Notes: a model not told the origin generated them from the letters alone. A stretch of DNA of 30,147 bases from Candidatus Magasanikbacteria bacterium RIFCSPHIGHO2_02_FULL_50_9b (GCA_001782975.1 MFQD01000018.1:9658-39804), one strand, 5' to 3'. Shown: positions 8,761 to 26,355, numbered from the stretch's first letter. Program-made: numbers and translations.

Positions 8761-8806
8761 GGCGGTGGCTGGGGTTCTACGGGATCCTGGCTGCCACCCT
8801 TTTTTA
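8761..8806 (+). terminator. Intrinsic terminator of the dehydratase-like gene
   Basis: GGTGGC/GCCACC stem with inner GU-rich stem capped by cUACGg, followed by T-run. Confidence 0.75.
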
Positions 8807-8808
8807 AT

Positions 8809-8837
8809 TTGACAGCATGTGTGATTTTATTTAATAT
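8809..8837 (+). promoter_or_regulatory. sigma70 promoter of toxin-like gene 8866
   Basis: TTGACA-17-TAATAT. Confidence 0.7.
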
Positions 8838-8865
8838 CGCCGCATAACAAAACATAAAAGGGGGT

Positions 8866-9282
8866 ATGTTTGGTGCATACAAAACAAAAGCAAATAAGAT
8901 TACCGGCATCACATGGGCTGAAATTGGAAAAAAAGCGATGATGCATTTTAAAATTATTGCGGCGCGAACCAAGCGACGGCCGTATGTGCGGTCTGCATAT
9001 TTTCGTAAGGAGAAAATTTTTCTTGAATTATTCTGGCATCATTTGTACGAAAAGCAAAACGTACGAGATAAAGCGCGTCGCGCAAAATATTTTTTGTGCG
9101 CGATAGAACTGATCGAACATTCGCGAATTGCGCCAACGGTAAAGGAAAATCCAAACCGGCACGGCGAGATGTTATATCGATTTTTTGGTACGGCGGCAAA
9201 CGGTGATGCATTCGTGGTGCAAATAAAAGAGGTGAAGCGTACGGGCGAAAAATGGTTGATGTCTGTGTTTCCGAAAGAATAA
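8866..9282 (+). CDS. Small basic hypothetical protein, possible BECR/RelE-like RNase toxin
   Basis: 138 aa, very basic, C-terminal beta pattern LYRFFG..FVVQIKE..WLMSVFP; fold assignment is inference. Confidence 0.55.
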   Translation: MFGAYKTKANKITGITWAEIGKKAMMHFKIIAARTKRRPYVRSAYFRKEKIFLELFWHHLYEKQNVRDKARRAKYFLCAIELIEHSRIAPTVKENPNRHGEMLYRFFGTAANGDAFVVQIKEVKRTGEKWLMSVFPKE

Positions 9283-9299
9283 GCGAACGTTTGGTGGCT

Positions 9300-9361
9300 T
9301 TAAAACAGAAAAAGGCATCCGCCAAGTTGTGGTGTATAAACCACGGAGGAAACCTTTCTCT
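9300..9361 (-). ncRNA. Predicted convergent small RNA 1 (candidate antitoxin)
   Basis: Minus-strand TTGACA (9392-9397)-18-TGcTATTCT (9368-9373); hairpin AAAGG/CCTTT with inner GTGGT/ACCAC; U-rich tail on the minus strand. Confidence 0.55.
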
Positions 9362-9397
9362 ATTTAGAGAATAGCACGGCACGCAAAATGTTGTCAA

Positions 9398-9446
9398 ATA
9401 AAAATCAGCCACCCGATCCGCGTGTTGAAGCGCGGGAAGGGTGGCT
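9398..9446 (-). terminator. Terminator of the yerC-astE-GNAT operon
   Basis: AGCCACCC (9407-9414)/GGGTGGCT (9439-9446), inner CCGCG/CGCGG, minus-strand U-tract. Confidence 0.75.
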
Positions 9447-9451
9447 TTGTG

Positions 9452-9955
9452 CTACAGTTTTCCAGCCATGATAATCCGGCGGCCAGACTGCTCTGCAACA
9501 ATCTGCATGCCACGCTTGTCCACGCACAAGTGCTGAATGATCGGTTGATCAATGGACGTGCGGACAACAGCCGTGGTGAAGTGGTGATCGAGTGCCGTGG
9601 CAAAGATCGCATCCATCAACTGGTTTGCAATGCCAGACAACCGCGCGCCACGCGACACAAACACTTCGCTCAAGTAGAATGCGTCGCGCCACTCGGGATT
9701 GATGAGCGCATACACATCCTGTTGCTCGCGCACGTGGTAGCCCAGACAGCCGCCAACCACAACGCCGTTGTGGTGCGCCGCAAGAAAGTGTGAGTCAGCG
9801 CTGTGCGCATGTGCAGCGAATTTGTCACGCAGCGTCGTCGCATCGTATTCTTCAAACCACGGCGGTTCGGCGAAACACGCGCGGTACAGCGCAACAAGCG
9901 AATCAATATCAGTGGATTGAACAGAGTGAATGTCGAGGTGATTTTGATTGTTCAC
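9452..9955 (-). CDS. GNAT family N-acetyltransferase
   Basis: FAEPPWFE, YLSEVFVSRGARLSGIANQL (motif A); AGGAG SD before a GTG that overlaps the upstream TGA. Confidence 0.85.
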   Translation of the reverse strand: MNNQNHLDIHSVQSTDIDSLVALYRACFAEPPWFEEYDATTLRDKFAAHAHSADSHFLAAHHNGVVVGGCLGYHVREQQDVYALINPEWRDAFYLSEVFVSRGARLSGIANQLMDAIFATALDHHFTTAVVRTSIDQPIIQHLCVDKRGMQIVAEQSGRRIIMAGKL

Positions 9956-10668
9956 GAGAAATCTCCTGTGTAGCGGCGCAGTTTGTAGCAAACGACGCCG
10001 GTTGTTGGTTGGTAGGTGCCGACAAACAAGGACACAAACGATTCATTATTTATAGTCACCGAACCAAATTCAGTGAGCTGTTGTTGTGGTGTGTCGCGCA
10101 GCGAGCCATGCACTTCATAAATTTCGCGCGTTGCAAGTGTTGTGCGCCAATCAATAGGCGCGGACACATCACTCGCTAAAAATTCTGTGAGAATTTTGGT
10201 GAGCGCTTGCTCTGTTTCTGGCGCATTTTTATTTCCACATTCAATTTCTAATCCACATGGCACAAACTCACTTAAGGGTCCTTTCAACTCTGCGCTGAAA
10301 CTTGGCCATACTACAATTCGTTGCACATTGAGCCGTGCGGCAAGTGCAAAGTTTTCTGCACACGGGTTGGTAATGATCAAGAAGATGCCCGTTGGCTCTG
10401 TAGCACCATGCAGATCGATCGTATATTGATAGTCCTGTGCGCGCGTGATTATTTCTGCAGCGCGGCGGCTGGCATACTGTGGTGAATTTACGTCTCCGGG
10501 CGCACTACGGTTAAGATCACCTTCAAATTCTCTGGTGCCTTGCTCAAACGCGCGGGGGTTTCCGATAAGCCAATCGAATGTGTCGTGAGTGTTTGAGAGG
10601 CGGAGCAAGACATTGACGCCAATTGGTTCGTTTCCATGCGTGCCGCCGATGAATAATATTTTTTTCAT
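9952..10668 (-). CDS. Succinylglutamate desuccinylase/aspartoacylase (AstE/AspA) family
   Basis: IGGTHGNEPIG, DLNRSAPG, TIDLHG, LEIECG zinc-carboxypeptidase motifs; start at MKKILF. Confidence 0.88.
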   Translation of the reverse strand: MKKILFIGGTHGNEPIGVNVLLRLSNTHDTFDWLIGNPRAFEQGTREFEGDLNRSAPGDVNSPQYASRRAAEIITRAQDYQYTIDLHGATEPTGIFLIITNPCAENFALAARLNVQRIVVWPSFSAELKGPLSEFVPCGLEIECGNKNAPETEQALTKILTEFLASDVSAPIDWRTTLATREIYEVHGSLRDTPQQQLTEFGSVTINNESFVSLFVGTYQPTTGVVCYKLRRYTGDFS

Positions 10669-10751
10669 AGTTGGGAAGTTGAATAATGAATGAATAATAA
10701 AGTACCCTCTCTGCGGAGAGGGTTTTGCACGGATTGATGTCCAGCAAAAAT

Positions 10752-11066
10752 CTACTCTACAGAGAGGCGTGTATGGTGGTGCGTATGATGTTGTGCTGTT
10801 TTGATTGCAGTACGATAACCGCCGGTACCGCGCGTCAGCCATTTTGAAATACGAGCAATGGTAGTGGAACTCAAACCAGTTTTTTTCTGGATTGTTTCAT
10901 ACGTTTCCTGCGCGGCCAGAAGTTGTGCAGTACGCCAGCGCCGAGAAAATTCAGTAATTTCTTCAGCTGTCAATAAATCGCGCAAAAAGAATCCCATTTG
11001 TTTTGGATTTTTGATGCGCGTGAGCGCACGAAAGAGATCTTGTGATTGAGGAGTGTCCCAGCGCAT
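10752..11066 (-). CDS. YerC/YecD TrpR-like transcriptional regulator
   Basis: FLRDLLTAEEI..FSRRW..AQLL..ETYETIQKKTGLSSTTIARISKWL..GTGGY; His-rich C-terminus. Confidence 0.9.
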   Translation of the reverse strand: MRWDTPQSQDLFRALTRIKNPKQMGFFLRDLLTAEEITEFSRRWRTAQLLAAQETYETIQKKTGLSSTTIARISKWLTRGTGGYRTAIKTAQHHTHHHTRLSVE

Positions 11067-11073
11067 ATGAGGG

Positions 11074-11110
11074 AGCATACCAGAGGATAATACTTTAGTC
11101 AAGTAAAGTA
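11074..11110 (-). promoter_or_regulatory. Promoter with overlapping palindromic operator for the YerC-like gene
   Basis: TTGACT (11097-11102)-17-TATGCT (11074-11079); palindrome TACTTTA-N6-TAAAGTA at 11091-11110 covers the -35; ATG follows the -10 after a 7-nt gap. Confidence 0.75.
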
Positions 11111-11126
11111 TTCCACAGCCAATTTT

Positions 11127-11555
11127 TTATGTGGCGAATGGCGAAGTTTTGAGAAGAATTTTTGATTCCGTTGGAGTGACAATTTTTTTTCGCTCGAGCG
11201 TAACGACGACATCGTCGGTACGGCCATCACATTTTTTGAGCAGTGATCTGATTTCATCGCGAAACTCGCTGAACATTTTGGTGGTATGAGCTTTTACGTC
11301 TTCACCAATTTCGACGCGGAGCTCTGTAGTGAGTTCAGTTTTGAGTTCTGTTTTGAGCTCTTGCTTGAATACACCGAGCCGTTCTTCAAGCACATCGTGA
11401 AGTTCATCGTGCGTGACCACGACACTGACTAAATATTGCTGTGTTTCGATGAGATCTTCGACATTGCGCATCAAACAAGTGAGCGCATTGATAACAAATG
11501 CCTCAAAAGGATTTTGCGGCGCGGGAATGACTGCTGCTGTTGCCCCCTGCAACAT
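11127..11555 (-). CDS. Hypothetical coiled-coil protein with ELKT repeats
   Basis: KQELKTELKTELTTELRVE heptad-like run. Confidence 0.65.
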   Translation of the reverse strand: MLQGATAAVIPAPQNPFEAFVINALTCLMRNVEDLIETQQYLVSVVVTHDELHDVLEERLGVFKQELKTELKTELTTELRVEIGEDVKAHTTKMFSEFRDEIRSLLKKCDGRTDDVVVTLERKKIVTPTESKILLKTSPFAT

Positions 11556-11736
11556 ACGAAAAAAAGTTAGTGACTGATGAAGTTGAGTATAGCAGGGAAT
11601 GGTTGTGCGTCATGGTGTGTATGATGTGGGAAAAGTGTGAGTACTGTGTGGATTGATTGACATTTTTTCTATCTGCTGCTACTCTTTTCACATTCGCCAC
11701 TACACAAATAACTTCGGCGAAATAAGGGAGGGCGCA

Positions 11737-12669
11737 ATGCCCACACTGCAACATGAAATTTCTGGGGCTTCGAGCAGTGACCACGTCAGCTATTGGGGGC
11801 CCGGCGCCCTCGGCCTCACGGTTACCGAACCGTTTGACGCCATGAACGGCATTCAGTGCGAGCGTGCGTTGCATGAGGCAGAGGCGGCGGACGGACCGGT
11901 GAACGTGCTCAAGGTCGGGTTCTGGGATCCGAGGAATCCGGAAGGCGCTGACCCCAACGAGGTGGTCGTGGACTTCACGGATGCGCAGATCCAAGATCCG
12001 GCGTTCGAGACGGTTGGCGGTCTTTCGTTCCGCGCGCGGCAGAAGTCCAACATCGGCGTTGTGCGCAATCCGCGCGCCGCTCGCACGAATTTCGGGTTCC
12101 GCGTTGCAGATTCTCACTGGGGCGTGCTGCTCGTGTACTCTTCGGATAGCACGGAAATCGCCGCCATGTTCTTCTTCCACCTCGGCCTCAAGTGCGTCAT
12201 GCCGGAGCGGCCGGGCGGCAAGAGCGTGTTCGAAACGGCTCTGGCGTGGTGCGATGAGCAGGGGATCAAGATCTCGGACGCTGACCTCTTCACCGACGGT
12301 GGCGTGCAGCAGTGCTGCTACGCACACCCGAACGTGGACACGCTGCGTCAGCAGGTTGCGGCGCGGTACGGCGATGGACTCGCCAACGGGGGTGAGCTTT
12401 TTCCGCCGGAAGTTGTCGTGAATCCGCCACACACTGGCCATTTTTCGATCAGCTTGCCGGAGCTGATCCGCGGTGAGTTTCGGCGCACATGGTGCGCGCG
12501 CGAAGACAACGCCTATAGCCAATCCTACGGTGACACGTGCACGGCGTGCTACGGCTTCTACGCCGCGCAAGATCCGAGCCGGCGCCTGCTCTACTCGCAC
12601 GCGCGTGGCGACGGACTGAAGCGCAACCTGTGCGTCGTGTCGTTCGATACTTCGCCCGACGGTGATTAG
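11737..12669 (+). CDS. Divergent YfiH/PgeF (laccase-domain / purine nucleoside phosphorylase) family protein
   Basis: VADS, FHLG, GGVQQCCY, DTCTAC, YSHAR..RNL match family order; GGAGG SD; promoter TTGACA-17-TACTCT upstream. Confidence 0.7.
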   Translation: MPTLQHEISGASSSDHVSYWGPGALGLTVTEPFDAMNGIQCERALHEAEAADGPVNVLKVGFWDPRNPEGADPNEVVVDFTDAQIQDPAFETVGGLSFRARQKSNIGVVRNPRAARTNFGFRVADSHWGVLLVYSSDSTEIAAMFFFHLGLKCVMPERPGGKSVFETALAWCDEQGIKISDADLFTDGGVQQCCYAHPNVDTLRQQVAARYGDGLANGGELFPPEVVVNPPHTGHFSISLPELIRGEFRRTWCAREDNAYSQSYGDTCTACYGFYAAQDPSRRLLYSHARGDGLKRNLCVVSFDTSPDGD

Positions 12670-12701
12670 TCGCTGAATCAGCGTCTCGGCGCGCACAACA
12701 A

Positions 12702-12746
12702 CACCCCAACTTGAACGGAAACGTTTGGCTGGGGTGCAATTTTTTT
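12702..12746 (+). terminator. Intrinsic terminator
   Basis: CACCCCA/TGGGGTG stem with inner AACG-GAAA-CGTT, followed by T-run. Confidence 0.75.
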
Positions 12747-12792
12747 CAAGTTTGACGGCAACGGAATAATTTTGTAATATCTCTCCAACTAT

Positions 12793-13179
12793 ATGGAGGG
12801 GAAATTATTCGGTGAATGGAATTTTTTGAAACAACGATTGAGCGCTGAAGCGATTGCGCATTTTTGTCGTGAGCGAGAGATCTGGGTATGTTCGATTGGA
12901 AAAAATGTTGGCCGCGAACAAAACGGAAAGCGCGAAATGTTTCAGCGGCCGGTTTTGGTGGTGCGGAAATTCGGGAGCGGCATATTTTTTGCAATTCCAT
13001 TGACGAGTACCGTGAGATGCAACGATTTATTTCTGCAAATTAGCGGTGGATCATTTTTGGTTTTAAATCAACTTAAAGTTTTTGATATGCGGCGACTCAT
13101 TCGAAAAATGAGACGGCTGGATGAATGTGAGTTTGAGTATGTGATGTCACAAGTGAGACGCGTAGTGTTCGGAAAATAA
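12793..13179 (+). CDS. PemK/MazF-like endoribonuclease toxin (orphan)
   Basis: REIWVCSIGKNVGREQNGK..FQRPVLVVRKF..FFAIPLTS..LNQLKVFDMRRL; promoter TTGACG (12752)-17-TAATAT. Confidence 0.85.
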   Translation: MEGKLFGEWNFLKQRLSAEAIAHFCREREIWVCSIGKNVGREQNGKREMFQRPVLVVRKFGSGIFFAIPLTSTVRCNDLFLQISGGSFLVLNQLKVFDMRRLIRKMRRLDECEFEYVMSQVRRVVFGK

Positions 13180-13223
13180 TACGGCCGCCCGTGAAGGCGG
13201 CCTCGAACCCGATTGGGTAGTGT
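13172..13223 (-). ncRNA. Predicted convergent small RNA 2 (candidate antitoxin)
   Basis: Minus-strand TTGACT (13253-13258)-17-TATACT (13230-13235); ACCC/GGGT hairpin then GGCCGCC/GGCGGCC terminator (13183-13202) with minus-strand U-rich tail. Confidence 0.6.
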
Positions 13224-13323
13224 GAGTAGAGTATATGTGGAGTTGAGTTGGTAGTCAAATAGAAAATCAGCCACCCGACCCGCGCCTTGTCAAAAAATCA
13301 ATCATTCGTTACACTCGTTGCAT

Positions 13324-13662
13324 ATGATTCACGAACTGAAGCTTCAGCCAGCGCCATTCAATGCCATCACGGCCGGTACCAAGGGAATCGAATGTCGTTT
13401 GTATGATGAAAAACGTCAGCAAATTCAACTGGGCGATACGTTAATTTTTAAACGCAATCCGGAATTGGAGCAAACGATTTCGGCGGAAGTTATCGGCCTT
13501 TTACGTTACCCAACTTTTTCAGCATTATTTGCCGATTTTTCGCCGCAAATGTTTGGTGGCGAAAGCGTGGAGGCGCTCGAGAAATTAATTTACAGCTTTT
13601 ATTCAAAAGAAGATGAGGCAAAATTCGGGGTGTTGGGGATTCGGATTCGGTTGGTGGACTAG
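13324..13662 (+). CDS. ASCH domain protein
   Basis: HELKL..PFNAI..GTKGIECRLYDEKRQQIQLGD..F. Confidence 0.9.
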   Translation: MIHELKLQPAPFNAITAGTKGIECRLYDEKRQQIQLGDTLIFKRNPELEQTISAEVIGLLRYPTFSALFADFSPQMFGGESVEALEKLIYSFYSKEDEAKFGVLGIRIRLVD

Positions 13663-13781
13663 TTGACTCAGATCAATAAAAGTGTTAGGCTTTGGATAAT
13701 CAAGCTCGGAAAGTCCGTGATTGATTATTAGTTCCACACACAAGGTGCGCAGTGCATTCTTGGTGGAACTCGGAGGCCATC

Positions 13782-15149
13782 ATGGCTGACAGTGTCGTGG
13801 TTGTGCAAAAGCACGTCGTCATCCGGGAAGCCCGGGAGGGTGATTTCAATTTCGTCGCACGCATCATGGAGGAGGCGCTGCCCGAGTGGTACAACGGTGA
13901 CCACGGAGCGCATGCAACCCGCATCTACGACGCGCACATGGCCGGCGGCACGGATAACGTCGGGCACTTTTCTGCCGAGCAGCACATGTTCATCATCGAG
14001 GTGAATGGTTGGCGGGCGGGAATGGTGCATCTCGTGGTCAAGAAGCAGAGGACGACCAAGATCAGCCCGCTTATCGTCGCAAAGGAGTTTCAGGGCGTCG
14101 GCGGTCTCGGGTCAAAGTTGCTCGCGCACGCGGAAGCGTTTGCGCGCGAACATGGCTCGCGGCAGATCTACGCAACCGTTGCCGAAAGCAACGGCAAGGC
14201 GTACGGTTTCTTCCGTCACATGGGTTATTCCGTGGCTGGCAAGTCGCCAAGCCACTACAAGCCCGGTAGCACGGAAGTCATGATCTATAAGCCGCTCGAC
14301 GACGTGAAGGCCATCGAAGAGCGTGATCGTCAGCACATTTCGGTCCGCGAATTCGATGAGGAGCAGCACGGCGAACAGGTTCGTGCGCTGATTCTCGAAA
14401 AGCTCGCGCCACAGTTTGATGGCGTGGACGATTCGTGGATCGACGCATTGTACGCCGGCTACCGGCGGCGGCACACGCGCGAGGTGAATGCGAAGTTCAA
14501 GCTCGTGTACGTTGCCGTTGACAGCGATGGAGTGGTGCTGGGCGTTGTTGGTTGCACCCCCAAGAAGGGTGAGCCGATCAAGCTCATGCCCTGCGTTGCA
14601 AAGACGCCGGAAGCGTTTGCTGCGCTGCTCATCGACATTCCGTACATGCTGCGCGCGTTCGGTCGCAAGCTGTATGTGCACTGTGTCCCTTCGGTTCCGG
14701 AGGTCATGGTGCTGCAGCGGCTGGGCTGGCTGCAGAACGCGCAGATGCCAGCTGCGTACCACATTAAATTCTCCACCCAGCAGTGGAGCAACGACTTGGA
14801 GATCACTATGAATCGGAACATTCGCGTCAAGGGACATTTGCTTCGTCAGATCAAGCGGGGGGACAAGACCCTTGAAGTGCGCGCCGGCTACCCCAACATC
14901 AAGGAAATTAAGCAGGGCGACACCATCCACTTCATGTCCTCGGACGAAGAGTGCGATGTGCGCGTCAAGGGCGTGCGCGTGTTCCCGAACATCGACGCGA
15001 TGATGGGCAAAGAAGATCACACGCGGATCGCTGCGGACATGTCGCGTCAGGGCGTCGTCGATTTGCTGCACAGCATTTACCCGCCGGCAAAGGAACGGCT
15101 GGGTATCTACGTGTTCGAGATCGAAGTCGTGCGGGGCGCGCGCGGCTAG
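13782..15149 (+). CDS. GNAT-GNAT-ASCH fusion protein
   Basis: KISPLIVAKEFQGVGGLGSKLL (GNAT 1), second GNAT-like half from about ISVREF, C-terminal IKRGDKTLEVRAGYPNIKEIKQGD (ASCH); GGAGG SD. Confidence 0.82.
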   Translation: MADSVVVVQKHVVIREAREGDFNFVARIMEEALPEWYNGDHGAHATRIYDAHMAGGTDNVGHFSAEQHMFIIEVNGWRAGMVHLVVKKQRTTKISPLIVAKEFQGVGGLGSKLLAHAEAFAREHGSRQIYATVAESNGKAYGFFRHMGYSVAGKSPSHYKPGSTEVMIYKPLDDVKAIEERDRQHISVREFDEEQHGEQVRALILEKLAPQFDGVDDSWIDALYAGYRRRHTREVNAKFKLVYVAVDSDGVVLGVVGCTPKKGEPIKLMPCVAKTPEAFAALLIDIPYMLRAFGRKLYVHCVPSVPEVMVLQRLGWLQNAQMPAAYHIKFSTQQWSNDLEITMNRNIRVKGHLLRQIKRGDKTLEVRAGYPNIKEIKQGDTIHFMSSDEECDVRVKGVRVFPNIDAMMGKEDHTRIAADMSRQGVVDLLHSIYPPAKERLGIYVFEIEVVRGARG

Positions 15150-15182
15150 TCAACAACAAGTGAGGTGGTGTACTACCACGTG

Positions 15183-15221
15183 AGCCGTTACATCTTTGGG
15201 GGAGTGTGACGGCTTCATTTT
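15183..15221 (+). terminator. Intrinsic terminator
   Basis: AGCCGTTAC/GTGACGGCT stem followed by T-rich tract. Confidence 0.7.
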
Positions 15222-15281
15222 AATTTGACAGCGTGATTGATTTTGTTTAACATCGCACCATAACAAAACATAAGGGGAGGT

Positions 15282-15683
15282 ATGTTTGAAATCATCGAAA
15301 TTTTTTGTTCATGGTGTCGCCAGAAAATTGCGCTGCATATTGCCGAACACCAGCCGCTGTTGTTTAAGCAGGGCGAGGTGTGGTGGTGCAGTTTTGGCAT
15401 GAACATTGGCGACGAGTTATATGGCAAGGGCGAAAAATTCGCGCGGCCGGTGTTGGTGTTGAAAAAATTTAGCCGGAATATTTTTTTGGCGCTGCCACTG
15501 ACTTCGGTTGAACGATGCGGCTCGTGGTATGTGGAAATGGAATTGCGCGGCACGCGGCGATGGATTATTTTAAATCAATCGCGAACGTTGGATGCACGCC
15601 GGTTGCTCGAAAACGTCGGCACGGTTGATTTACAGACGCTGAATAATGTTCGCGAGCAGTTTATAAAATTACTGACCTCATAA
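15282..15683 (+). CDS. PemK/MazF-like endoribonuclease toxin (orphan)
   Basis: FKQGEVWWCSFGMNIGDELYGKGEKFARPVLVLKKF..LALPLTS..LNQSRTLDARRL; promoter TTGACA (15225)-17-TAACAT. Confidence 0.87.
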   Translation: MFEIIEIFCSWCRQKIALHIAEHQPLLFKQGEVWWCSFGMNIGDELYGKGEKFARPVLVLKKFSRNIFLALPLTSVERCGSWYVEMELRGTRRWIILNQSRTLDARRLLENVGTVDLQTLNNVREQFIKLLTS

Positions 15684-15756
15684 AATCCAATCGCGGCCAT
15701 TGCTGGCCGCGATTATTGGGTTTCCCCGAAGATGGGATCTCCGAATCGGAGATCGT
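15682..15756 (-). ncRNA. Predicted convergent small RNA 3 (candidate antitoxin)
   Basis: Minus-strand TTGACA (15786-15791)-17-TATATT (15763-15768); GATCTCCG/CGGAGATC hairpin and 11-bp AATCGCGGCCA/TGGCCGCGATT terminator. Confidence 0.62.
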
Positions 15757-15833
15757 GCGTTGAATATACTGCGGGCAAAAGAAGTTGTCAAGCACGCTGT
15801 TTTCCGCTACCATACCACTATAATTTCCAATCT

Positions 15834-17048
15834 ATGGCCAAGCCCCACACCGCGAAAATCTCCACCGACCCCGCAAAAATCTCCCAAATCCTAGACCGTG
15901 GCGTGGCCGAATGTATTGTACGCGAAGATTTGGAGGCCAAGCTAAAAGCCGGCGCGCCATTACGAATCAAATTGGGCATTGACCCAACGTCACCCAACCT
16001 GCATCTCGGCCGCTCAATCCCGCTGCTAAAATTGCGTGACTTCCAAGAACTCGGCCATCAAGTAGTATTCATCGTCGGCGACTTCACGGGCATCATCGGC
16101 GACACGTCGGACAAGGAAGCAGAGCGCCCGATGCTGACAGAGGCGGACATTGCGGCCAACCTCAAAACATACGTCGCGCAGGCGGGCAAAATTATTGACC
16201 TTGACCGCGCGGAAATTCATTTTAATTCGACGTGGCTCGGCAAACTGGGCTTCAAGGAAATTGGCGAGATGGCGAATCATTTTAGCGTGGCGGAATTTAT
16301 CGCGCGCGAAAACATTGCAAAGCGTCTCGACGGCGGCAAGCGCGTGAGTTTGCGCGAGGTGCTGTATCCCTTGATGCAGGCGTACGATTCGGTGGCGATC
16401 ACGGCCGACGTCGAACTCGGCGGCACTGACCAGCGTTTCAATGTGCTCGCCGGCCGTTCGCTGCAACCATTCTATGGCCAGCCCGCGCAAAACATCATTG
16501 TGAATCCGCTCATCGCCGGTCTCGACGGCCGCAAAATGTCGTCGTCGTGGGGCAACACCATCAATTTATTGGACGAGCCCGCGGACATGTATGGCAAGGT
16601 GATGTCGCTCTTGGACGAACTGGTTTTGGAATATTTTATGAACGCAACGCGCATTGATCTCGCCGAAATTGTCGAGATGCGTTCTGCGTTGGCTGCGGGC
16701 ACGAATCCGCGCGATTTAAAAATGCGTTTGGGCCGCGAGATTGTTGGGATGTACTGGGGCGCTGCGGCGGCGGGCGCGGCAGAGGAACATTTTCGGACGG
16801 TGCATCAGCAGGGTGGCGTGCCGGAGGATATGCCGGTGGTGAAAGTTGATTGGGTGCAGGCGGCGTTGGTTGATGTGTTGGTTGAGGTTGGTTTTTGTTC
16901 TTCGAAAAGTGAGGCGCGGCGGCAGATTGAGGAGGGCGGTGTTAAGGTTGATGGGGTTGTGGTTGAGGATGTTGCGGCGATGGTTGAAGCGAAGAAAGAG
17001 GGGGTTGTGGTGCAGAAAGGGAAGAGGTTTTTTGTGAGGATTGTTTGA
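15834..17048 (+). CDS. tyrS: Tyrosine--tRNA ligase
   Basis: KLGIDPTSPNLHLGR, YPLMQAYD, ELGGTDQRFN, GRKMSSS, C-terminal S4 domain (SKSEARRQIEEGGVKVDG). Confidence 0.97.
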   Translation: MAKPHTAKISTDPAKISQILDRGVAECIVREDLEAKLKAGAPLRIKLGIDPTSPNLHLGRSIPLLKLRDFQELGHQVVFIVGDFTGIIGDTSDKEAERPMLTEADIAANLKTYVAQAGKIIDLDRAEIHFNSTWLGKLGFKEIGEMANHFSVAEFIARENIAKRLDGGKRVSLREVLYPLMQAYDSVAITADVELGGTDQRFNVLAGRSLQPFYGQPAQNIIVNPLIAGLDGRKMSSSWGNTINLLDEPADMYGKVMSLLDELVLEYFMNATRIDLAEIVEMRSALAAGTNPRDLKMRLGREIVGMYWGAAAAGAAEEHFRTVHQQGGVPEDMPVVKVDWVQAALVDVLVEVGFCSSKSEARRQIEEGGVKVDGVVVEDVAAMVEAKKEGVVVQKGKRFFVRIV

Positions 17049-17095
17049 TAGTAAGGAATGTATTATGAGGAAGCGTTTTACTATATGATCAAATT

Positions 17096-18511: not shown

Positions 18512-18540
18512 TTGACCCTCGAAACATTTTCTGCTATAAT
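18512..18540 (+). promoter_or_regulatory. Strong sigma70 promoter
   Basis: TTGACC-17-TGcTATAAT. Confidence 0.85.
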
Positions 18541-18546
18541 GCATTT

Positions 18547-18753
18547 GTAAGAGTCACAACTTAATCCTTAGTGCCGGGACAATGGCACCGCTTAGATCCT
18601 GCCCGAATGGGCAAGGCAACCGGGGAAATCTGTCGGGAGCCAGATGGACTATAGCGACTAACTACAAAGTGGTTGGGAGATTTCATTCACAGCTGTGCGC
18701 CGAGTGGTGCGCGCGGCATGGTGGATTTAATTTCCGAGCCACCTTTATTTTTT
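18547..18753 (+). ncRNA. ssrS: Probable 6S RNA (about 200 nt)
   Basis: Own promoter and GGTGG/CCACC + T-run terminator; long-range rod pairing ATCC/GGAT, GTGCCG/CGGCAT, GCACCGCTT/GAGTGGTGC; CGGGAGCC and 3' GCGGCAT motifs resemble known 6S RNAs as I recall them. Confidence 0.55.
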
Positions 18754-18760
18754 GCGGCAT

Positions 18761-19543: not shown

Positions 19544-19550
19544 TAATGAC

Positions 19551-19826
19551 TTATTTGTTGTGTTTTTTATCGATGTAGTCCATTAGTTCATGTTTAGATT
19601 TTGATATTTCTGATTTTAATTCGGTTTTAAGAGACAGGATTAAATCAGCAGTCTCCTTTCGAAGCATAAGATTATATCTCAGGAATTCCATGATCTCATG
19701 ATGACCCTCTTTAAGGGCGTTCAGGCTTCTTTCAATCACGCAAAATTTAGTCGTAGCATTTGTAATGAATTGCTGTAAGACTATCCGTAAATTCAAAGAT
19801 CGTGACGAAACATCTGGGTTGTTCAT
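19551..19826 (-). CDS. Hypothetical coiled-coil protein
   Basis: LKTELKSEISKSKHELMDYIDKK, same style as 11127-11555. Confidence 0.55.
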   Translation of the reverse strand: MNNPDVSSRSLNLRIVLQQFITNATTKFCVIERSLNALKEGHHEIMEFLRYNLMLRKETADLILSLKTELKSEISKSKHELMDYIDKKHNK

Positions 19827-20322
19827 AAGACTAAAAAGATAAATTAAGCACCTTACTACTGGGTGCCATAATTATGGTATCTTGTCAATAGCAAGGGCTG
19901 TGGAAAACTAGGCATGCGATTTCAGACTTTGCTTTCTGCACTGGTTGGATAATTTTTTTGAGGTTTAAGAAGAGTAAACTTAGTGGACTTGACACAGATA
20001 TTGCAGTTTGATCTAAGCAAGCGCATACTATCAGAGTTCGTTGCACATCCCAATTTATTCTCTGTTTAGAGCCAGAGAAAGCGTCATTCAATCCTAATGC
20101 ACACAGGGGATTGACCATCAAAAGTGCTACCTTGCCGAAACGAGAGTTTCGTCGGGTGCTCTAACACTGCCGACGGACTGTTTAGACAGCGTGGGCAGGG
20201 TAGACGCTTTTGGTGGTTTTTCATTTTTCGCTTGACGATTCCCGACGGGTTTAGGAAGTATTTGACCGTCGGGAGCACTTAAGCTCCGAGTGACTGCCTT
20301 CGCAGTTGAAAATTACTGGTTT

Positions 20323-20463
20323 ATGCCATACATTTTCCGGAAGTGCACCACCATCAATGGCGTGTATCGCTGTAAGCGCAAAGGCGTATTTCGCTTTTGG
20401 GTGGATAGTGAAAAGCCAAACGATGGGAAACTAAAAGAGACCGACGAAAACGTCAGTCTCTAG
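20323..20463 (+). CDS. 46-aa small basic protein missed by the ORF track
   Basis: MPYIFRKCTTINGVYRCKRKGVFRFWVDSEKPNDGKLKETDENVSL; followed by a plus-strand terminator at 20473-20518. Confidence 0.5.
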   Translation: MPYIFRKCTTINGVYRCKRKGVFRFWVDSEKPNDGKLKETDENVSL

Positions 20464-20521
20464 TAGTTTCGCAATCAAAGCCGCCGTTGTTCTTAGCGGG
20501 ACGCGGCGGTTTTTGATTTGT
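20428..20521 (-). ncRNA. Predicted antisense RNA overlapping the 3' end of the 46-aa ORF
   Basis: Minus-strand TTGACA (20551-20556)-17-CACAAT (20528-20533); terminator hairpin 20436-20461 whose single C/A mismatch becomes G-U only on the minus strand, followed by UUUAGUUU. Confidence 0.5.
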
Positions 20522-20891
20522 TCGGGCATTGTGTATTAAAAGCGGTTTTTTGTCAAGTATGAAGTCGCCCGACTCCCAATGTATTGTTAGTATAACACAA
20601 GTTCTCTGGGGATAACACTATTGCCACATTTTATAACAAATCAGGATTAATGTTACTAAAATAGCTCCTAATAAGTATCCAATTTGTTTGAAATAGTGCG
20701 CAAGATCCCCTCGCACAAGATTGAGTAAACCTTTTGTTTCGTAGACTGATTGAAAAATAGCTTCTTGTGTTGTGTCTTGATTTTTTTCCATAGTACTTTC
20801 ACTATATCACACACGTATGTCTCTATAGGATAAGTGTTGAAAACTCTGTCACTATGGCATTTGTTTGCATTTTCAACTAATATTAGTCAGT

Positions 20892-21239
20892 ATGAATACT
20901 CTTGAAGATTTGACCGCCAAAATTACTACATTTCGAGATGCACGCGATTGGAAGCAATTTCATAATCCAAAAGATTTAGCATTATCACTAGTATTGGAGG
21001 CAGCTGAGGTCATGGAGCATTTTCAGTGGAAAAATGAAGATGAGATTAAAAAATATTTGGTTTCAAATAAAGCAGCTATTAGCGAGGAGCTTGCAGATGT
21101 CTTATATTGGGTGCTTTTGATGGCGTATGATTTAAATATCGATATTGGCACCGCAGTTGAAAATAAAATGCAGAAGAATGAAGAAAAATATCCAGTAGAA
21201 AAAGCAAAGGGGAAGCATACAAAATATACTGATCTTTAA
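20892..21239 (+). CDS. MazG-like nucleotide pyrophosphohydrolase
   Basis: FRDARDWKQFHNPKDLALSLVLEAAEVMEHFQW..EELADV..KYPVEKAKG. Confidence 0.92.
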   Translation: MNTLEDLTAKITTFRDARDWKQFHNPKDLALSLVLEAAEVMEHFQWKNEDEIKKYLVSNKAAISEELADVLYWVLLMAYDLNIDIGTAVENKMQKNEEKYPVEKAKGKHTKYTDL

Positions 21240-21242
21240 GAT

Positions 21243-23108
21243 ATGATCGTTTACCAGTCAACAAAGTTAGGGTTTTTAGAGGATGCTTCAAACGGAATTG
21301 AAGATGTAATAAGAGATCAAGTAAAAGAAAAATTGAATATTAATGTTCAGGTCGGTAGCAGTGAATATAATTCATGGAAAAACTCATTAGGAGATGCCAT
21401 GTATAAAGTGATGCAGACCAGTACAATTCCAGATGATTCAGGAGTTGCGATTGAATATTCAATTCCACGCACAAAAAATCGCATCGATTTTTTAATTACA
21501 GGACAAGACGACCATGGACATGAAAAGGTAGTTGTGATTGAATTGAAACAATGGACGAACACGCGCCTCACTGATAAAGATGCAATGGTAGAAGCGACTT
21601 TTAGGTATGGTCATATAAGTGAAGAGCTACACCCGTCTTATCAAGCGTGGTCCTATACAACTTTGCTTAATGGATTTAATGCAACAGTTTATAATGAAGG
21701 AATTCAATTAGAATCGTGTTCATACCTACATAATGAGATTGATGACAGTGTTATCAATCATGATTTTTATAAAAGCTACACAGATCAGTCTCCTGCGTTT
21801 TGTAAGGGTGATAAGGAAAAATTGCAAAAATTTATTGCTCAATACATTAAGTATGGAGATAATAAAAAAACATTATTTCGAATTGATAATAGTGCGATTA
21901 GACCATCAAAAGCATTAGCAGATAGTATTGCATCGATGCTTAAGGGTAACGATGAATTCATAATGATCGATGATCAGAAAATTGTTTATGAAACAGCTTT
22001 GTCCTTGGCTCGAAGTTCAAGTCATGAAAATAAAAATGTACTTATTGTAAATGGAGGTCCTGGAACCGGTAAATCTGTAGTCGCTATTAATTTATTGTCG
22101 GCTACCAAAAAAGGATTAAATGCACGCTATGTTACACGAAATTCTGCACCACGCTTAGTGTTTGAGTCAATGTTAACAAAAACTTTTAGGAGAACAGAGT
22201 TTTCAAACTTATTTTCTGGTACCGGATCTTTTGTTGATGCTGATGCTAATGATTTTGACATTCTAATAGTTGATGAGGCGCATAGATTAACAGAAAAATC
22301 TAATTTTTTTGGTAAGGGCGATAATCAGATTAAGGAAATAATAAATGCAAGTAAGTTTAGCATTTTTTTCATTGATGAAGATCAGAAAGTGACGCTTAAT
22401 GATATTGGTGAAAAAGGTGAAATTCGTAAATTTGCTGAGCAGCAAGGTGCGAAGGTTACAGAAATGTCATTAGAATCGCAGTTTCGTTGTAACGGTTCTG
22501 ATGGGTATCTTTCATGGTTAGATAATACTTTACAAATTCGTGAGACCGCCAATATTATACTGGATGATAGTGACTACGAGTTTTGTATTTTTGATGATCC
22601 TCAAAAATTGCATGATTTTATCATTGAAAAAAACAAAGAAAAAAATAAAGCTCGAATGGTGGCGGGATATTGTTGGAAATGGATTAGTAAAAAACAGCCA
22701 TCGTTAAAAGATATTGTAATAGGCGATTATGCAGCAACTTGGAATCTGAATTCGCATGGTCAAACATGGATCGCACAGCCAGACTCAGTAACTGAGGTGG
22801 GGTGCATTCATACGGCACAAGGTCTTGAGGTTGATTATGTCGGGGTTATTGTCGGGCATGATCTTACTGTACGAAATGGTAAAGTAATTACCGATGTCAG
22901 CAAAAGAAGCGGAGGAGATAAATCAGTGCATGGTTGGAAAGGATTAATGAAAGAGGATCCTATTGGAACAAAAGCTCGTCTAGATGCAATTATAAAAAAT
23001 ACATACAGGACCTTGATGACTCGAGGAATGAAGGGGTGTTATGTGTATTTTACAGACAAGGAGACGGAGGAATTTTTTAGGAAGAATTTAGGTTTGAATA
23101 AAATATAA
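21243..23108 (+). CDS. DUF2075 (Schlafen group 3-like) nuclease-helicase
   Basis: N-terminal RIDFLITG..VIELKQW nuclease motif; Walker A GGPGTGKS; IVDEAHRL; QFRCNGS; GCIHTAQGLE; YRTLMTRGMKG. Confidence 0.9.
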   Translation: MIVYQSTKLGFLEDASNGIEDVIRDQVKEKLNINVQVGSSEYNSWKNSLGDAMYKVMQTSTIPDDSGVAIEYSIPRTKNRIDFLITGQDDHGHEKVVVIELKQWTNTRLTDKDAMVEATFRYGHISEELHPSYQAWSYTTLLNGFNATVYNEGIQLESCSYLHNEIDDSVINHDFYKSYTDQSPAFCKGDKEKLQKFIAQYIKYGDNKKTLFRIDNSAIRPSKALADSIASMLKGNDEFIMIDDQKIVYETALSLARSSSHENKNVLIVNGGPGTGKSVVAINLLSATKKGLNARYVTRNSAPRLVFESMLTKTFRRTEFSNLFSGTGSFVDADANDFDILIVDEAHRLTEKSNFFGKGDNQIKEIINASKFSIFFIDEDQKVTLNDIGEKGEIRKFAEQQGAKVTEMSLESQFRCNGSDGYLSWLDNTLQIRETANIILDDSDYEFCIFDDPQKLHDFIIEKNKEKNKARMVAGYCWKWISKKQPSLKDIVIGDYAATWNLNSHGQTWIAQPDSVTEVGCIHTAQGLEVDYVGVIVGHDLTVRNGKVITDVSKRSGGDKSVHGWKGLMKEDPIGTKARLDAIIKNTYRTLMTRGMKGCYVYFTDKETEEFFRKNLGLNKI

Positions 23109-23230
23109 AATGGAGGATGGTGGCGGAGATGCTAAGGCTATTTTAGTCCTATTGGCCCTCATCGATTCTAGGGCATCCTAAAAGTACTCACTGCACATAT
23201 AAAACTAATTCTGGCGAACCATTTTAGATA

Positions 23231-24481
23231 TTACTTTTCACGTCTCTGCTGGTATCTTTCTTTGGAGTTTTTTTTCTGAAGACTTACATGATATTGATGA
23301 AAATCATCGGCATCGCGTTCCGGTTCCAAGGACATAGCGGGCATACATCTCCCTCTGCGATAGGGTCCGACTAGATTTGCAAATTCTCCTTTGAACCATT
23401 GTAGTGTGTCATGCTCAGTACGATTTTTTGTCTCTTTGCTATAGTCAGGATCTCCAGGCAATCGGCCATATTCATCCATCGCTCCACCAGTTCCATCTTT
23501 ATTTCCCCAAAATACTTCACCTCCCCAATTAATAGGCCGTGGATCAGGCATTAATAAATAACCATGACCATATCTATTCCAATCTGATTTAGAGATGAAT
23601 TTTTCTGGATATAACCATTCTTTTCGAGCTGCAGCAATATATCTGTGTGCTCGACTTTTAATAATGAAATTTATTTCGCGCACTTCTTGTTCGTTAAGAT
23701 GTCTCAAAATTTGCACTTCAGTAAAATTAAAAATGGCGTTGCGTAATGGATTCGGATTTGGCCGCAAATTAGTTGCACATTGATATGGATTTCGCATCCA
23801 AGAAAGATTAGTCAGGATAAGTACCTTATTCATAGAGAGTGGAAAAATTGTATGTGTGCCCTGTAGCCAAATTTCTGGATCATTATATTCTTTGCATCGC
23901 CATGAGCGAGGCCCACACTCTCTGTTATAAACAGTAACTGGGTGATCAGAAATAATAAATTTTGTATCGGACTGTGATGCATCAGCAATAAGCCACACAC
24001 ATTCCGTCCAAATGGCACAATGCAACTGTCTTAATCTCATCATCTGTCTAAGAATAGTATGTTTATCGCGCGTACCGAATTTACTTCCCAAAAATGAAAG
24101 TCCTTTTGGGGTTCGAAGTTTCTGGGCACTCATGTACAATAAAATGTCCTGGAGAGATGTGCCCCAATATCTTGCCGGATGTTCATATTGCTCAAAGTAT
24201 TCAACCGCTGGCCCACCCTTTGCATCAATGGCACCAAAAAAATATTTTTCGATATCCCTTGTTTCAATTCCGCGAATCGTAGTTGTGTACAAATCATCAG
24301 CTGTAAAGCATTTTCTTACACCCTGCCACTTTAAAGGCTCTACAATATGCGATACGCCGCGAGGATCCACAAACGTATCAGGTTTCATGTCTAATTGAAA
24401 CAGATGATGCTCTCCTGGCAACAGGAACCGTTTTTGGTACCATTGTGGCACATAATGATGGTTTCGATACTCGTCTGACAT
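23231..24481 (-). CDS. DUF4238 domain protein
   Basis: NHHYVPQWYQKRF N-terminus, FIISDHPV, FPLSMNKVLIL. Confidence 0.85.
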   Translation of the reverse strand: MSDEYRNHHYVPQWYQKRFLLPGEHHLFQLDMKPDTFVDPRGVSHIVEPLKWQGVRKCFTADDLYTTTIRGIETRDIEKYFFGAIDAKGGPAVEYFEQYEHPARYWGTSLQDILLYMSAQKLRTPKGLSFLGSKFGTRDKHTILRQMMRLRQLHCAIWTECVWLIADASQSDTKFIISDHPVTVYNRECGPRSWRCKEYNDPEIWLQGTHTIFPLSMNKVLILTNLSWMRNPYQCATNLRPNPNPLRNAIFNFTEVQILRHLNEQEVREINFIIKSRAHRYIAAARKEWLYPEKFISKSDWNRYGHGYLLMPDPRPINWGGEVFWGNKDGTGGAMDEYGRLPGDPDYSKETKNRTEHDTLQWFKGEFANLVGPYRRGRCMPAMSLEPERDADDFHQYHVSLQKKNSKERYQQRREK

Positions 24482-24490
24482 GCAACTAAG

Positions 24491-24823
24491 TTAAAAATTT
24501 TCTTCAACATCTTGAATCATTTTCTCTTTAGTTGTAAAAGCATTTTTTCCATCAAACCGAATAAAGTGATCATTAATTTGTGCTCTCAAAGATTCTTTAG
24601 TTAAATTAGGACATTGACTTTTTACATCCTTGATCTCGTATTTACCTACAATATAAGATCCGCTACATGAATCAACAGTTGTAAGTGATCCATCGGTGAA
24701 CCAACTGTATACATACATTCCTAAAATTATTGCGACAACAATTAAGATATTTCCTAATTGTACAAATAGAGCCTTCAACTTTGGTGACATATATATAAAT
24801 ATACAGTATTTGTATTTTAACAC
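24491..24823 (-). CDS. Hypothetical single-pass membrane protein
   Basis: LGNILIVVAIILGMYVYSWF helix then small Cys-containing domain; true start possibly MSPKL. Confidence 0.55.
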   Translation of the reverse strand: MLKYKYCIFIYMSPKLKALFVQLGNILIVVAIILGMYVYSWFTDGSLTTVDSCSGSYIVGKYEIKDVKSQCPNLTKESLRAQINDHFIRFDGKNAFTTKEKMIQDVEENF

Positions 24824-24879
24824 AAATAAGCGTTTTTTAGTGTTTATTTAGTTCTATCAATTTTCATCGATTATCTAGC

Positions 24880-25413
24880 ACGCCCGTCGACATTAAATCC
24901 TCAAGCAAGCTCGATAAGAAACACAAATTGCAGCTGACACTCTACGCGAACATCCTGGAACACATGCAGGGAGTGTATCCGAGCGAAACCGCAATCATCA
25001 ATCGCGATCACGAGCGCATTCCGTTCACCATCACACCAAAAGACCGCGCGGAAACGCAGAAACAAATCACCAACATTCTTGCAGTGATGCATGGCGAAAA
25101 GCCGCCGCTGCGGCTCACATCGAGTTGCAAAAATAGTCCGTGGTATCACGAGTGCGTGCAGGAGGCGCAGGCGGCCGATGACATTGCGCTCATCTACAAT
25201 CTCGACGCGCGGTCACATGATGCGCTTCGGGGCGCAGGGGTGCACACGATACATGACGCAGCGCGCATGGACGTTGCTGGTTTGCCGAAAATTCCGTTTG
25301 CGAGCGCCGCGAAACTCGAACGTGCGCGCGAGCACGCACACACGGGCCACGTGCGCTTTGATCCTGACTCGACCCGCAATCCTTTCCCACAATTTTTTTG
25401 GATCCAACCTTAA
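24880..25413 (+). pseudogene. Internal fragment of a TM0106-like RecB-family nuclease
   Basis: In-frame PVDIKSSSKLDKKHKLQLTLYA (from 24883) with no upstream ATG before the stop at 24838; C..SPWYHEC, HhH-like LRGAGVHTIHDAA; ends before the expected RNase H-like domain. Confidence 0.75.
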
Positions 25414-25416
25414 TTT

Positions 25417-25695
25417 CTACGCCGCGCAGGCGCCATCCGTGTCACTACATGTTGCCACCGACACACTCGCCGCAACCGCCGCATCAAAACACGCGAGCGA
25501 GCACGCTCGATACTCGCCATATTGCTGCGCCGCCAACAGCGCCGAGCACTTCGCGTCCCAGCACATCCAAAATTGTTGTTTCTGATAGTAATTCAAATCG
25601 TTGTAGCTTGCGGCGTACGCAATAGACGCGGTCGTGCCAGCGGCAAGCAGAATGCCAACAAATAAACCGGCCACAAGTGGAAAGCGGGTGCGCAT
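25417..25695 (-). CDS. Secreted Cys-rich protein, probably 3'-truncated
   Basis: Signal peptide MRTRFPLVAGLFVGILLAAG..AYA; ends four residues after CSDTDG; promoter TTGACA (25741-25746)-17-CATACT. Confidence 0.6.
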   Translation of the reverse strand: MRTRFPLVAGLFVGILLAAGTTASIAYAASYNDLNYYQKQQFWMCWDAKCSALLAAQQYGEYRACSLACFDAAVAASVSVATCSDTDGACAA

Positions 25696-25833
25696 AGATG
25701 TGGAAGTAAGTAAGGGGAGTATGGCAAGGGGGCGGGGGGTTGTCAATCAGTTGACATCCTCGCGCCCCTGTTTTAAAATCCCCGCATTAATCACTCGCGC
25801 ATCACGCGTGCGGTAACTTACAAAGGGAGGGGT

Positions 25834-26235
25834 ATGTTTGGAATCATAGAAATTTTTTGTGCATGGTGCAGACAGAAAATTGCATTACACGTGGACGAAC
25901 GGCCGGCAAAATTTTTTAAGCAGGGCGAAGTGTGGTGGTGCCGTGTTGGCAAGAACGTTGGCGATGAAATATATGGCAAGGGAGAAAAGTTTGCGCGTCC
26001 TGTACTGATTTTTAAAAAATTAACACGCACCACATTTTTGGCGCTGCCAATCACGTCCTTGCCAAAAATTGGTACGTGGTATGTATCCTTTGAGCTCTCT
26101 GGCATTTTTCGATCCGTCTTATTAAATCAGGCACGCACGCTGGACTCACATCGCCTGCTGGGCAGAATTGGAACACTCACAGACGACGATGCCAAAAAAA
26201 TTCGCACAAGTTTTTTGGAATTTTATGCCACTTAA
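25834..26235 (+). CDS. PemK/MazF-like endoribonuclease toxin (orphan), paralog of 15282
   Basis: Colinear 133 aa, 76/133 identical to 15282-15683 by hand count; promoter TTGACA (25751)-17-TAAAAT. Confidence 0.87.
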   Translation: MFGIIEIFCAWCRQKIALHVDERPAKFFKQGEVWWCRVGKNVGDEIYGKGEKFARPVLIFKKLTRTTFLALPITSLPKIGTWYVSFELSGIFRSVLLNQARTLDSHRLLGRIGTLTDDDAKKIRTSFLEFYAT

Positions 26236-26286
26236 AAAAATCTGCCTCCGCTGGAGAGCGGAGGTCGGTGGGTAACCCCAAATTAT
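26234..26286 (-). ncRNA. Predicted convergent small RNA 4 (candidate antitoxin)
   Basis: Minus-strand TTGACA (26316-26321)-17-TATAGT (26293-26298); CCTCCGCT/AGCGGAGG terminator (26245-26264) followed by CAGAUUUUUUU on the minus strand. Confidence 0.65.
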
Positions 26287-26355
26287 GTCTGAACTATAGC
26301 GCAGGGAAGGCGGGTTGTCAAATAAAAAAACGCGGGGCAGCGACACATTTCTGTG

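Follow-up and report, generated by a model that had tools for sequence, protein, structure and literature searches.

How is a MazF/PemK-like toxin gene controlled when no antitoxin gene precedes it? MazF and PemK are textbook type II toxins, defined by a protein antitoxin. A 30,147-nt stretch of the genome of Candidatus Magasanikbacteria bacterium RIFCSPHIGHO2_02_FULL_50_9b (GCA_001782975.1, MFQD01000018.1:9658-39804; hereafter the window, at its full length) carries three such genes and one unrelated toxin-like gene, each faced beyond its 3' end by a promoter on the opposite strand that would produce a short terminated RNA. The comparisons reported here indicate that a whole MazF-like subfamily appears to be controlled by a small RNA (sRNA) encoded convergently with the toxin. 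We lean, with modest confidence, towards each unit being a toxin/RNA-antitoxin module in which the RNA acts in a type I-like manner, as a cis-antisense on the 3' end of the toxin mRNA. The source genome (780 kb, 88% complete) belongs to the Patescibacteria (Candidate Phyla Radiation, CPR), and its closest relatives among the fetched loci are Magasanikbacteria metagenome-assembled genomes (MAGs). The features of the four units, in window coordinates, are as follows.

8809-8837, plus strand: promoter of toxin gene 1, TTGACA-17-TAATAT, lying within a 71-nt promoter/leader
8866-9282, plus strand: toxin candidate 1, 138 aa, basic, of no sequence family, with a predicted EndoU/RelE (BECR)-like fold
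9296-9361, minus strand: predicted small RNA 1, a long hairpin with interruptions that has GUGGU-UUAUAC-ACCAC as its inner stem and ends in a U tail, of an RNA family specific to the toxin-1 protein family
9368-9397, minus strand: promoter of small RNA 1, TTGACA-18-TATTCT
12752-12780, plus strand: promoter of toxin gene 2, TTGACG-17-TAATAT
12793-13179, plus strand: putative toxin 2, MazF/PemK-like, 128 aa
13176-13223, minus strand: predicted small RNA 2, with 5' hairpin ACCC-AAUC-GGGU, a terminator hairpin and a U tail overlapping the toxin stop codon
13230-13258, minus strand: promoter of small RNA 2, TTGACT-17-TATACT
15225-15253, plus strand: promoter of toxin gene 3, TTGACA-17-TAACAT
15282-15683, plus strand: putative toxin 3, MazF/PemK-like, 133 aa, with an N-terminal helix extension and conserved R55 and T74
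15684-15756, minus strand: predicted small RNA 3, three hairpins (an extra 5' hairpin, GGG-GAAA-CCC and the terminator)
15763-15791, minus strand: promoter of small RNA 3, TTGACA-17-TATATT
25751-25779, plus strand: promoter of toxin gene 4, TTGACA-17-TAAAAT
25834-26235, plus strand: putative toxin 4, MazF/PemK-like, 133 aa, 57% identical to toxin 3
26236-26286, minus strand: predicted small RNA 4, the canonical form AUAAUU-UGGGGUUACCCA-CCGA-terminator-UUUUU
26293-26321, minus strand: promoter of small RNA 4, TTGACA-17-TATAGT

An initial annotation, made from the sequence alone, had described three PemK/MazF-like genes and one unrelated gene, a forward promoter directly before each, and a convergent promoter for a short RNA ending at each toxin stop; these elements were recovered by independent means. 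The Pfam family PemK_toxin (PF02452) was matched above its gathering cut-off of 23.1 bits by 12793-13179 (30.1 bits, E 6e-7), 15282-15683 (48.8 bits, E 9e-13) and 25834-26235 (43.4 bits, E 4e-11), and no family in Pfam, NCBIfam or PADLOC was matched by 8866-9282. The promoter scan reproduced the forward promoter of all four genes and returned the four minus-strand promoters with exactly the hexamers and spacers that had been claimed, 50-85 nt past the stops. The RNAs predicted from them measure 48-73 nt, close to the about 50-75 nt annotated, and all four have the expected U-rich end on the minus side: intrinsic terminators were called at 13202-13183, 15715-15688 and 26264-26245, and in small RNA 1 (9361-9296) the interrupted hairpin is followed by UUUUUCUGUUUU, a U run. 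Compared with shuffled sequence, each of the four RNAs gives a much more stable fold (z -3.7 to -5.3). The proposal that the toxin mRNA reads through the hairpin stands in part: no plus-strand terminator was called after 12793-13179 or 25834-26235, but the hairpin downstream of 15683 received a terminator score on the plus strand too, which makes read-through less certain at this gene than at the others.

The placement of the convergent promoters is not due to chance. Sites scoring at least 10/12 numbered 14 on both strands of the 19 kb scanned, and four of them sit 50-85 nt past these stops on the opposite strand, against a chance expectation, estimated from scan density, of about 0.026 such sites per gene. 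Across the whole 780 kb, only 22 compact units have a strong promoter followed by a terminator no more than 130 nt away, four being these RNAs and three tRNAs. The fourth MazF-like paralog of the genome (L004), which lies on a different contig, shows the features of the window modules, namely a convergent promoter, the 5' hairpin and the terminator, and the layout is thus present at all four MazF-like paralogs as well as at toxin 1. No family was found at any of the four RNAs when the window was scanned with Rfam 15 in E-value mode. As an alternative product of the minus-strand promoters, small open reading frames (ORFs) were considered and rejected, none being consistent over the four loci when read from the sequence.

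Some neighbouring promoters and RNA genes were recorded alongside. The minus-strand promoter at 25746, which stands back to back with the promoter of toxin gene 4, was considered as a fifth sRNA promoter and rejected; it drives a gene (25695-25417) for a 92-aa protein with a signal-peptide-like N-terminus. At 15785-15791, the -35 element of the small RNA 3 promoter (TTGACA, minus strand) overlaps the -35 element (TTGTCA) of the divergent tyrS promoter, and back-to-back promoters share one near-palindromic hexamer both there and at about 2985-2995 of L006, a locus from a related Magasanikbacteria MAG. The scan for compact RNA genes also returned two homologous promoter-terminator units of about 85 nt on the minus strands of contigs C10 (1703-1584) and C41 (1652-1532).

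A protein antitoxin was sought next to the genes and elsewhere in the genome. As the initial annotation had argued, an upstream antitoxin ORF has no room, each of the four genes having its own promoter directly before it. Among the homolog loci described below, only 8/68 have an ORF of 45 aa or more that lies on the toxin strand and ends where the toxin gene begins, and none of these ORFs is conserved. The possibility of a trans-encoded partner, raised at the outset as a way in which the proposal could fail, was addressed with the families MazE_antitoxin (PF04014) and RHH_1 (PF01402), neither of which was found in the 88%-complete genome; both were matched in control genomes.

If the RNA is the partner of the toxin, it should accompany the toxin elsewhere. 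A first sample comprised 80 loci with relatives of the MazF-like proteins, taken from species-representative genomes. With the genome's own copies included, an opposite-strand promoter scoring at least 10/12 lies within 220 nt of the stop in 61/83 loci, in most of them 45-64 nt from it. Within 30-100 nt past the stop, such a promoter occurs at 50/82 homolog loci, compared with only 15/349 (4%) for the remaining ORFs of these loci with a length of 120 aa or more, a contrast that is large even though related genomes are not independent and a P value would overstate the effect. The enrichment over other genes that the proposal predicted is thus present. A second sample of 29 loci, obtained by a phylum-wide genome search and sharing none with the first, gave a convergent promoter in 22, and nearly all of these show the MazF-linked RNA as well. 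The toxin promoters in the homolog loci are usually weak (6/68 reach 10/12) and the RNA promoter is near consensus; a weak toxin promoter combined with a strong RNA promoter is the expression logic of RNA-antitoxin systems. In eight loci (L013, L015, L017, L021, L022, L029, L036 and L079) the MazF-like ORF is 10-20 codons longer and ends inside the sRNA gene, its stop often falling in the loop of hairpin 1, as in the first seven, where mRNA and sRNA must therefore overlap.

The distribution of the subfamily is wide and patchy: it occurs in 51/401 sampled Patescibacteria species genomes, often in several copies and with up to seven per genome, and one family in the sample (Saccharibacteria) carries the module in 14/23 genomes. 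A tblastn search of plasmids brought up relatives in Campylobacter, Helicobacter and Nitratiruptor, with replication and mobilisation genes as neighbours. The convergent-RNA layout recurs on the plasmids from Nitratiruptor and Helicobacter. Kept beside the homologs across Patescibacteria and on Campylobacterota plasmids, with covarying stems and with no protein antitoxin found in the searches above, the convergent sRNA is strongly supported as the dedicated partner gene that had been proposed. The further step, from partner to antitoxin, draws on this comparative evidence and is predicted; toxicity, neutralisation and the antisense route are all properties that we infer.

The MazF-linked RNA has a compact and recurrent structure, which consists of a 5-8 nt A/U-rich leader, a hairpin of 4-5 bp (hairpin 1), a linker of 2-5 nt, a GC-rich hairpin that serves as terminator and a U tail that in most cases lies across the stop codon of the toxin gene, about 48-55 nt in total; some members, including 15684-15756, have an extra 5' hairpin. 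In a gap-free alignment of 34 windows, 97.7% of the hairpin-1 cells are standard pairs, and all four pairs show changes on both sides (U-A/C-G/A-U/G-C, G-C/C-G/A-U and C-G/G-C among them). The covarying structure that was looked for downstream of the homologs is therefore present in all four hairpin-1 pairs, with a covariation score of 0.84 against 0.19 in shuffles (0/500 reach it) and at most 0.18 with slid partners. The windows were of fixed length and were picked with the help of minimum free energy (MFE) folds, which favours pairing, a bias addressed by the slid-partner control; since MAFFT left-justifies the terminator arms, these windows and MFE parsing were used instead of a full-length covariance model. 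The loops vary freely (AUUU, GUAA, UUCG, CUAG, GCAA), and with covarying stems and free loops it is the shape that is conserved rather than a protein-recognition sequence. Hairpin 1 is conserved though not needed for termination. A strand test gave a weak preference for folding on the sRNA strand (mean -0.65 kcal/mol, 35 vs 18), with G-U counts not in its favour.

The proteins themselves resemble known MazF toxins. For the MazF-like AlphaFold2 model (pLDDT 85), the top Foldseek matches are all MazF, the first being 4mdx, the B. subtilis MazF-RNA complex (E 1.3e-6, TM 0.64/0.73), and in a profile alignment to 4mdx the invariant R55 and T74 fall on R25 and T48, the catalytic residues of B. subtilis MazF. 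The subfamily also has features of its own, namely an N-terminal helix with conserved F, W and K and a five-residue insertion with an invariant Gly-Lys before the catalytic Arg. The MazF-like proteins are putative RNase toxins. They could instead be benign RNA-processing or RNA-binding factors with the RNA as substrate or cofactor, an alternative that accords with the additional helix and insertion, with the tolerance of several copies in a tiny genome, and with toxicity being so far a prediction. We regard it as most improbable, because the catalytic Arg and Thr of MazF are conserved, the patchy, multi-copy, cassette-like spread is typical of toxin-antitoxin modules, and relatives reside on plasmids beside replication and mobilisation genes.

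Toxin 1 requires separate treatment. The four genes had initially been presented as one system, and the convergent layout is common to all of them, but toxin 1 belongs to a second family with its own, different RNA: a convergent promoter and this other conserved RNA follow toxin-1 homologs in 19/22 loci. At least 196 relatives of the toxin-1 product exist, almost all of them in CPR metagenomes or MAGs, all unnamed and none with a Pfam domain, and the family occurs in 17/401 sampled genomes of the phylum. Its AlphaFold model (pLDDT 93.7) is matched over residues 5-138 by an AFDB cluster named 'Bacterial EndoU nuclease domain-containing protein' (E 1.2e-8, TM 0.78/0.83), with weaker AFDB matches to PBECR (including PBECR2), MuF-C-terminal and BrnT entries. 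Foldseek gave no match of the model in the PDB; an exhaustive PDB aligner placed RelE, BrnT, CdiA-CT, YoeB, MqsR and HigB first for residues 47-138, at only Z 3.8-5.3. As judged from the model, toxin 1 is plausibly an RNase toxin of the Barnase-EndoU-ColicinE5/D-RelE (BECR) fold.

The RNA linked to toxin 1 has an outer stem of about 10 bp that includes the U tail, an internal loop and the inner hairpin GUGGU-UUAUAC-ACCAC, with compensatory changes in 7/14 predicted pairs. In 14/16 cases the sRNA strand gives a more stable fold than the toxin strand (mean -3.4 kcal/mol; G-U pairs 28 vs 12), and the structure of this second family is therefore selected as a minus-strand RNA. With an A run on one side and a U run on the other, the hairpin can terminate both transcripts once they have fully overlapped. 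On contig C34 (11610-11885; L108), a second copy of the 8866-type gene, shortened at its N-terminal end to residues 45-137 (49% identity), keeps the convergent promoter and the cognate hairpin RNA.

The initial annotation had considered this architecture undescribed, which does not wholly hold. The protein pVir0047 (30634-31038), encoded on plasmid pVir of Campylobacter jejuni 81-176, is a homolog (33% identity, E 9e-11) whose alignment takes in the N-terminal F..W...K extension specific to the family as well as the catalytic motifs. On the strand opposite pVir0047, a very strong transcription start site (TSS) lies at 31119 (Dugar et al., 2013, PMC3656092, Tables S5 and S12), and the 77-nt sRNA CJpv3 (31119-31043) was detected by Northern blot (Dugar et al., 2013, PMC3656092). 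CJpv3 starts 81 nt past the pVir0047 stop and ends 5 nt past it, and its predicted fold has three hairpins, the last a GC-rich terminator. A statement in a later citing paper describes CjrA in strain 81-176 as the antisense sRNA antitoxin of a type I system, and one in another citing paper places cjrA on pVir. A mapped convergent transcript and a published antisense RNA antitoxin thus exist for strain 81-176. A cjrA/cjpT type I pair was reportedly described by Shen and colleagues in 2016, and pVir0047/CJpv3 is probably this published pair.

The modules of the window resemble pVir0047/CJpv3 in having a homologous toxin, a convergent sRNA at its 3' end, a multi-hairpin RNA with a terminator and no annotated adjacent protein antitoxin. 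They differ from it in that the pVir RNA is plasmid-borne, belongs to a proteobacterium-like host, and is 77 nt long with three hairpins of unrelated sequence, whereas the modules here are chromosomal, multi-copy and spread across Patescibacteria, with a compact two-hairpin RNA and a second toxin family in addition. The type I systems txpA/RatA, bsrG/SR4 and par (Fst/RNA II) likewise have a toxin mRNA and an antitoxin RNA that converge, with 3' overlap or a shared terminator and a strong antitoxin promoter; a convergent RNA gene that abuts or overlaps the ORF end, a predicted 3' overlap of the transcripts and a strong RNA promoter recur here, together with RNase III, which is encoded in the genome. 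The toxins of those systems, however, are small hydrophobic membrane peptides, the usual though not universal kind of type I toxin, and those predicted here are soluble RNase-fold proteins of 128-138 aa; unlike par, the modules also lack a second pairing site at the toxin translation start. With type II MazEF and PemIK (Kis-Kid) they share the toxin fold, the Pfam family and the catalytic Arg/Thr, but a MazE/PemI-type gene was not found upstream or in the genome, the toxin has its own promoter and the conserved partner is an RNA gene. With type III ToxIN, CptIN and TenpIN, whose toxin fold is distantly related to that of MazF, they share an endoribonuclease toxin and an RNA partner, but the RNA has no tandem repeats and is single-copy, downstream and on the opposite strand, and the proteins are MazF-like and not of the ToxN family. 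What is new is the pairing of probable convergent antitoxin RNAs, in the style of type I, with full-size RNase toxins of two folds, for which there is one probable experimental precedent.

The toxin-RNA modules behave as cassettes, and the valS-tyrS interval is a cassette site of variable content. In the window this interval (6977-15835) spans 8.9 kb, and other accessory genes are scattered among its modules (8866-9282, 12793-13179 and 15282-15683); in the related Magasanikbacteria MAG (L006:774-4203) it measures 3.4 kb and contains three modules head to tail, in the order MazF-like gene, 8866-type homolog (83% identity) and second MazF-like gene, with a convergent RNA at each. The unrelated genes 8866 and 15282 have in common a 71-nt promoter/leader (8802-8872 and 15218-15288, 86% identity) that occurs in two copies only in the genome and in none of the fetched loci, and neighbouring cassettes of L006 share another leader, CATTACAAACTATCGGGAG (L006:2990-3055 and 3560-3625). 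Since leaders are shared by unrelated toxin genes and L006 has a different one, recombination or gene conversion between adjacent cassettes is suggested. On pVir, pVir0044, pVir0046 and pVir0048, which surround pVir0047 (L085, pVir 29076-31257), have nearly identical promoters in the published TSS table, an observation that echoes the shared leaders.

Insertion between housekeeping genes raises the alternative that the sRNA is real but is not an antitoxin, and serves instead as transcriptional insulation of the inserted cassette or as a trans-acting regulator of other genes. Insulation would fit cassettes wedged between valS and tyrS, hairpins that function as terminators, and the frequent overlap between the -35 element of the sRNA promoter and that of the promoter of the next gene. 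We nevertheless consider this explanation very unlikely: the RNA family changes in step with the toxin family and follows it into unrelated surroundings, plasmids among them, promoters so placed are rare at other ORFs of the same loci, and conservation of hairpin 1 exceeds what termination needs.

In the mechanism towards which we lean, the RNA would be made from its near-consensus promoter, the toxin promoter being usually weaker, and would pair perfectly with the 3' end of the toxin mRNA, which would run through the shared hairpin or end just beyond it. RNase III would cut the RNA-RNA duplex, the toxin mRNA would then lose its protective 3' hairpin, and toxin synthesis would stay low, as in txpA/RatA and bsrG/SR4 of Bacillus subtilis; loss of the unstable RNA would allow the toxin to accumulate. 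This cis-antisense route is favoured because the toxin ORF ends inside the RNA gene in several loci, which builds the overlap into the architecture, because at 12793-13179 and 25834-26235 no terminator was called on the toxin strand beyond the shared hairpin, and because the second-family hairpin, with its A and U runs, can end both transcripts once they fully overlap. It is favoured further by the RNase III gene and by the statement on what is probably the Campylobacter RNA, published as 'antisense'. Finally, two unrelated toxins with unrelated RNAs have the same layout, so that convergent overlap is their common denominator, and a route that depends on this overlap is preferred.

Several observations weigh against the cis-antisense route. 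The overlap lies in the 3' untranslated region, far from the ribosome-binding site, and translation could therefore not be blocked directly; nor does the RNA have extra complementarity to the toxin translation start (mean duplex energy in kcal/mol: cognate -14.6, non-cognate -15.2, shuffled -15.3). The sequencing runs found to contain this DNA are groundwater and soil metagenomes only, with no RNA run listed, the identities of CJpv3 with CjrA and of pVir0047 with cjpT are no more than probable, and toxicity is a prediction, as noted for the MazF-like proteins. Hairpin 1 and its flanks, moreover, are conserved across phyla to a greater extent than pure cis-antisense pairing requires.

This last point leads to a type III-like alternative, in which the sRNA, although its gene is single, convergent and equipped with a promoter and terminator of its own, would bind the toxin protein and block its RNA-binding groove. 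ToxI blocks ToxN by direct binding in this way and is encoded as upstream repeats. The covariation of hairpin 1 in distant lineages is in keeping with such binding, as are the existence of a separate RNA family for each toxin family, the selection of the second-family structure on the sRNA strand (14/16 more stable, G-U pairs 28 vs 12), and the MazF fold, an RNA-binding endoribonuclease fold whose best match here is a complex with RNA. Set against this, the hairpin-1 loop sequences are not conserved, repeats and a same-strand arrangement are absent, the proteins resemble MazF and not ToxN/AbiQ, and the sole published statement on what is probably the Campylobacter relative speaks of antisense and type I; we therefore judge protein binding rather unlikely for these modules. 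The general form of the idea, that MazF-fold and EndoU/RelE-fold toxins of Patescibacteria and some plasmids are neutralised by structured convergent sRNAs that bind the toxin protein, is in our view unlikely. If true, it would define a new class of RNA-protein toxin-antitoxin systems, with a type III mechanism, another gene architecture and at least two unrelated toxin folds.

Genome annotation labels these genes as 'type II toxins' and misses the partner. Should control by convergent RNAs be borne out, partners would become known for hundreds of 'orphan' toxins, the known RNAs would grow by two families unmatched in Rfam 15, and a preference of the reduced CPR genomes for RNA-based control would be established. 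Its simplicity makes the system testable in Escherichia coli, where the antisense and protein-binding routes are directly distinguishable.

Other parts of the window contain further accessory genes. The segment 17000-24900 is low in GC (34-45%, vs about 50-58% nearby), encodes MazG-like, Schlafen-type helicase, DUF4238 and HD-domain proteins, and looks like a defence or accessory island. A structured stretch at 27874-28207, between a rhuM-like gene and a zeta-toxin-like gene (28237-28977), gives a weak, sub-threshold Rfam match to manA RNA (24 bits, E 0.02). A tRNA-Ile with anticodon UAU is located at 1884-1957.

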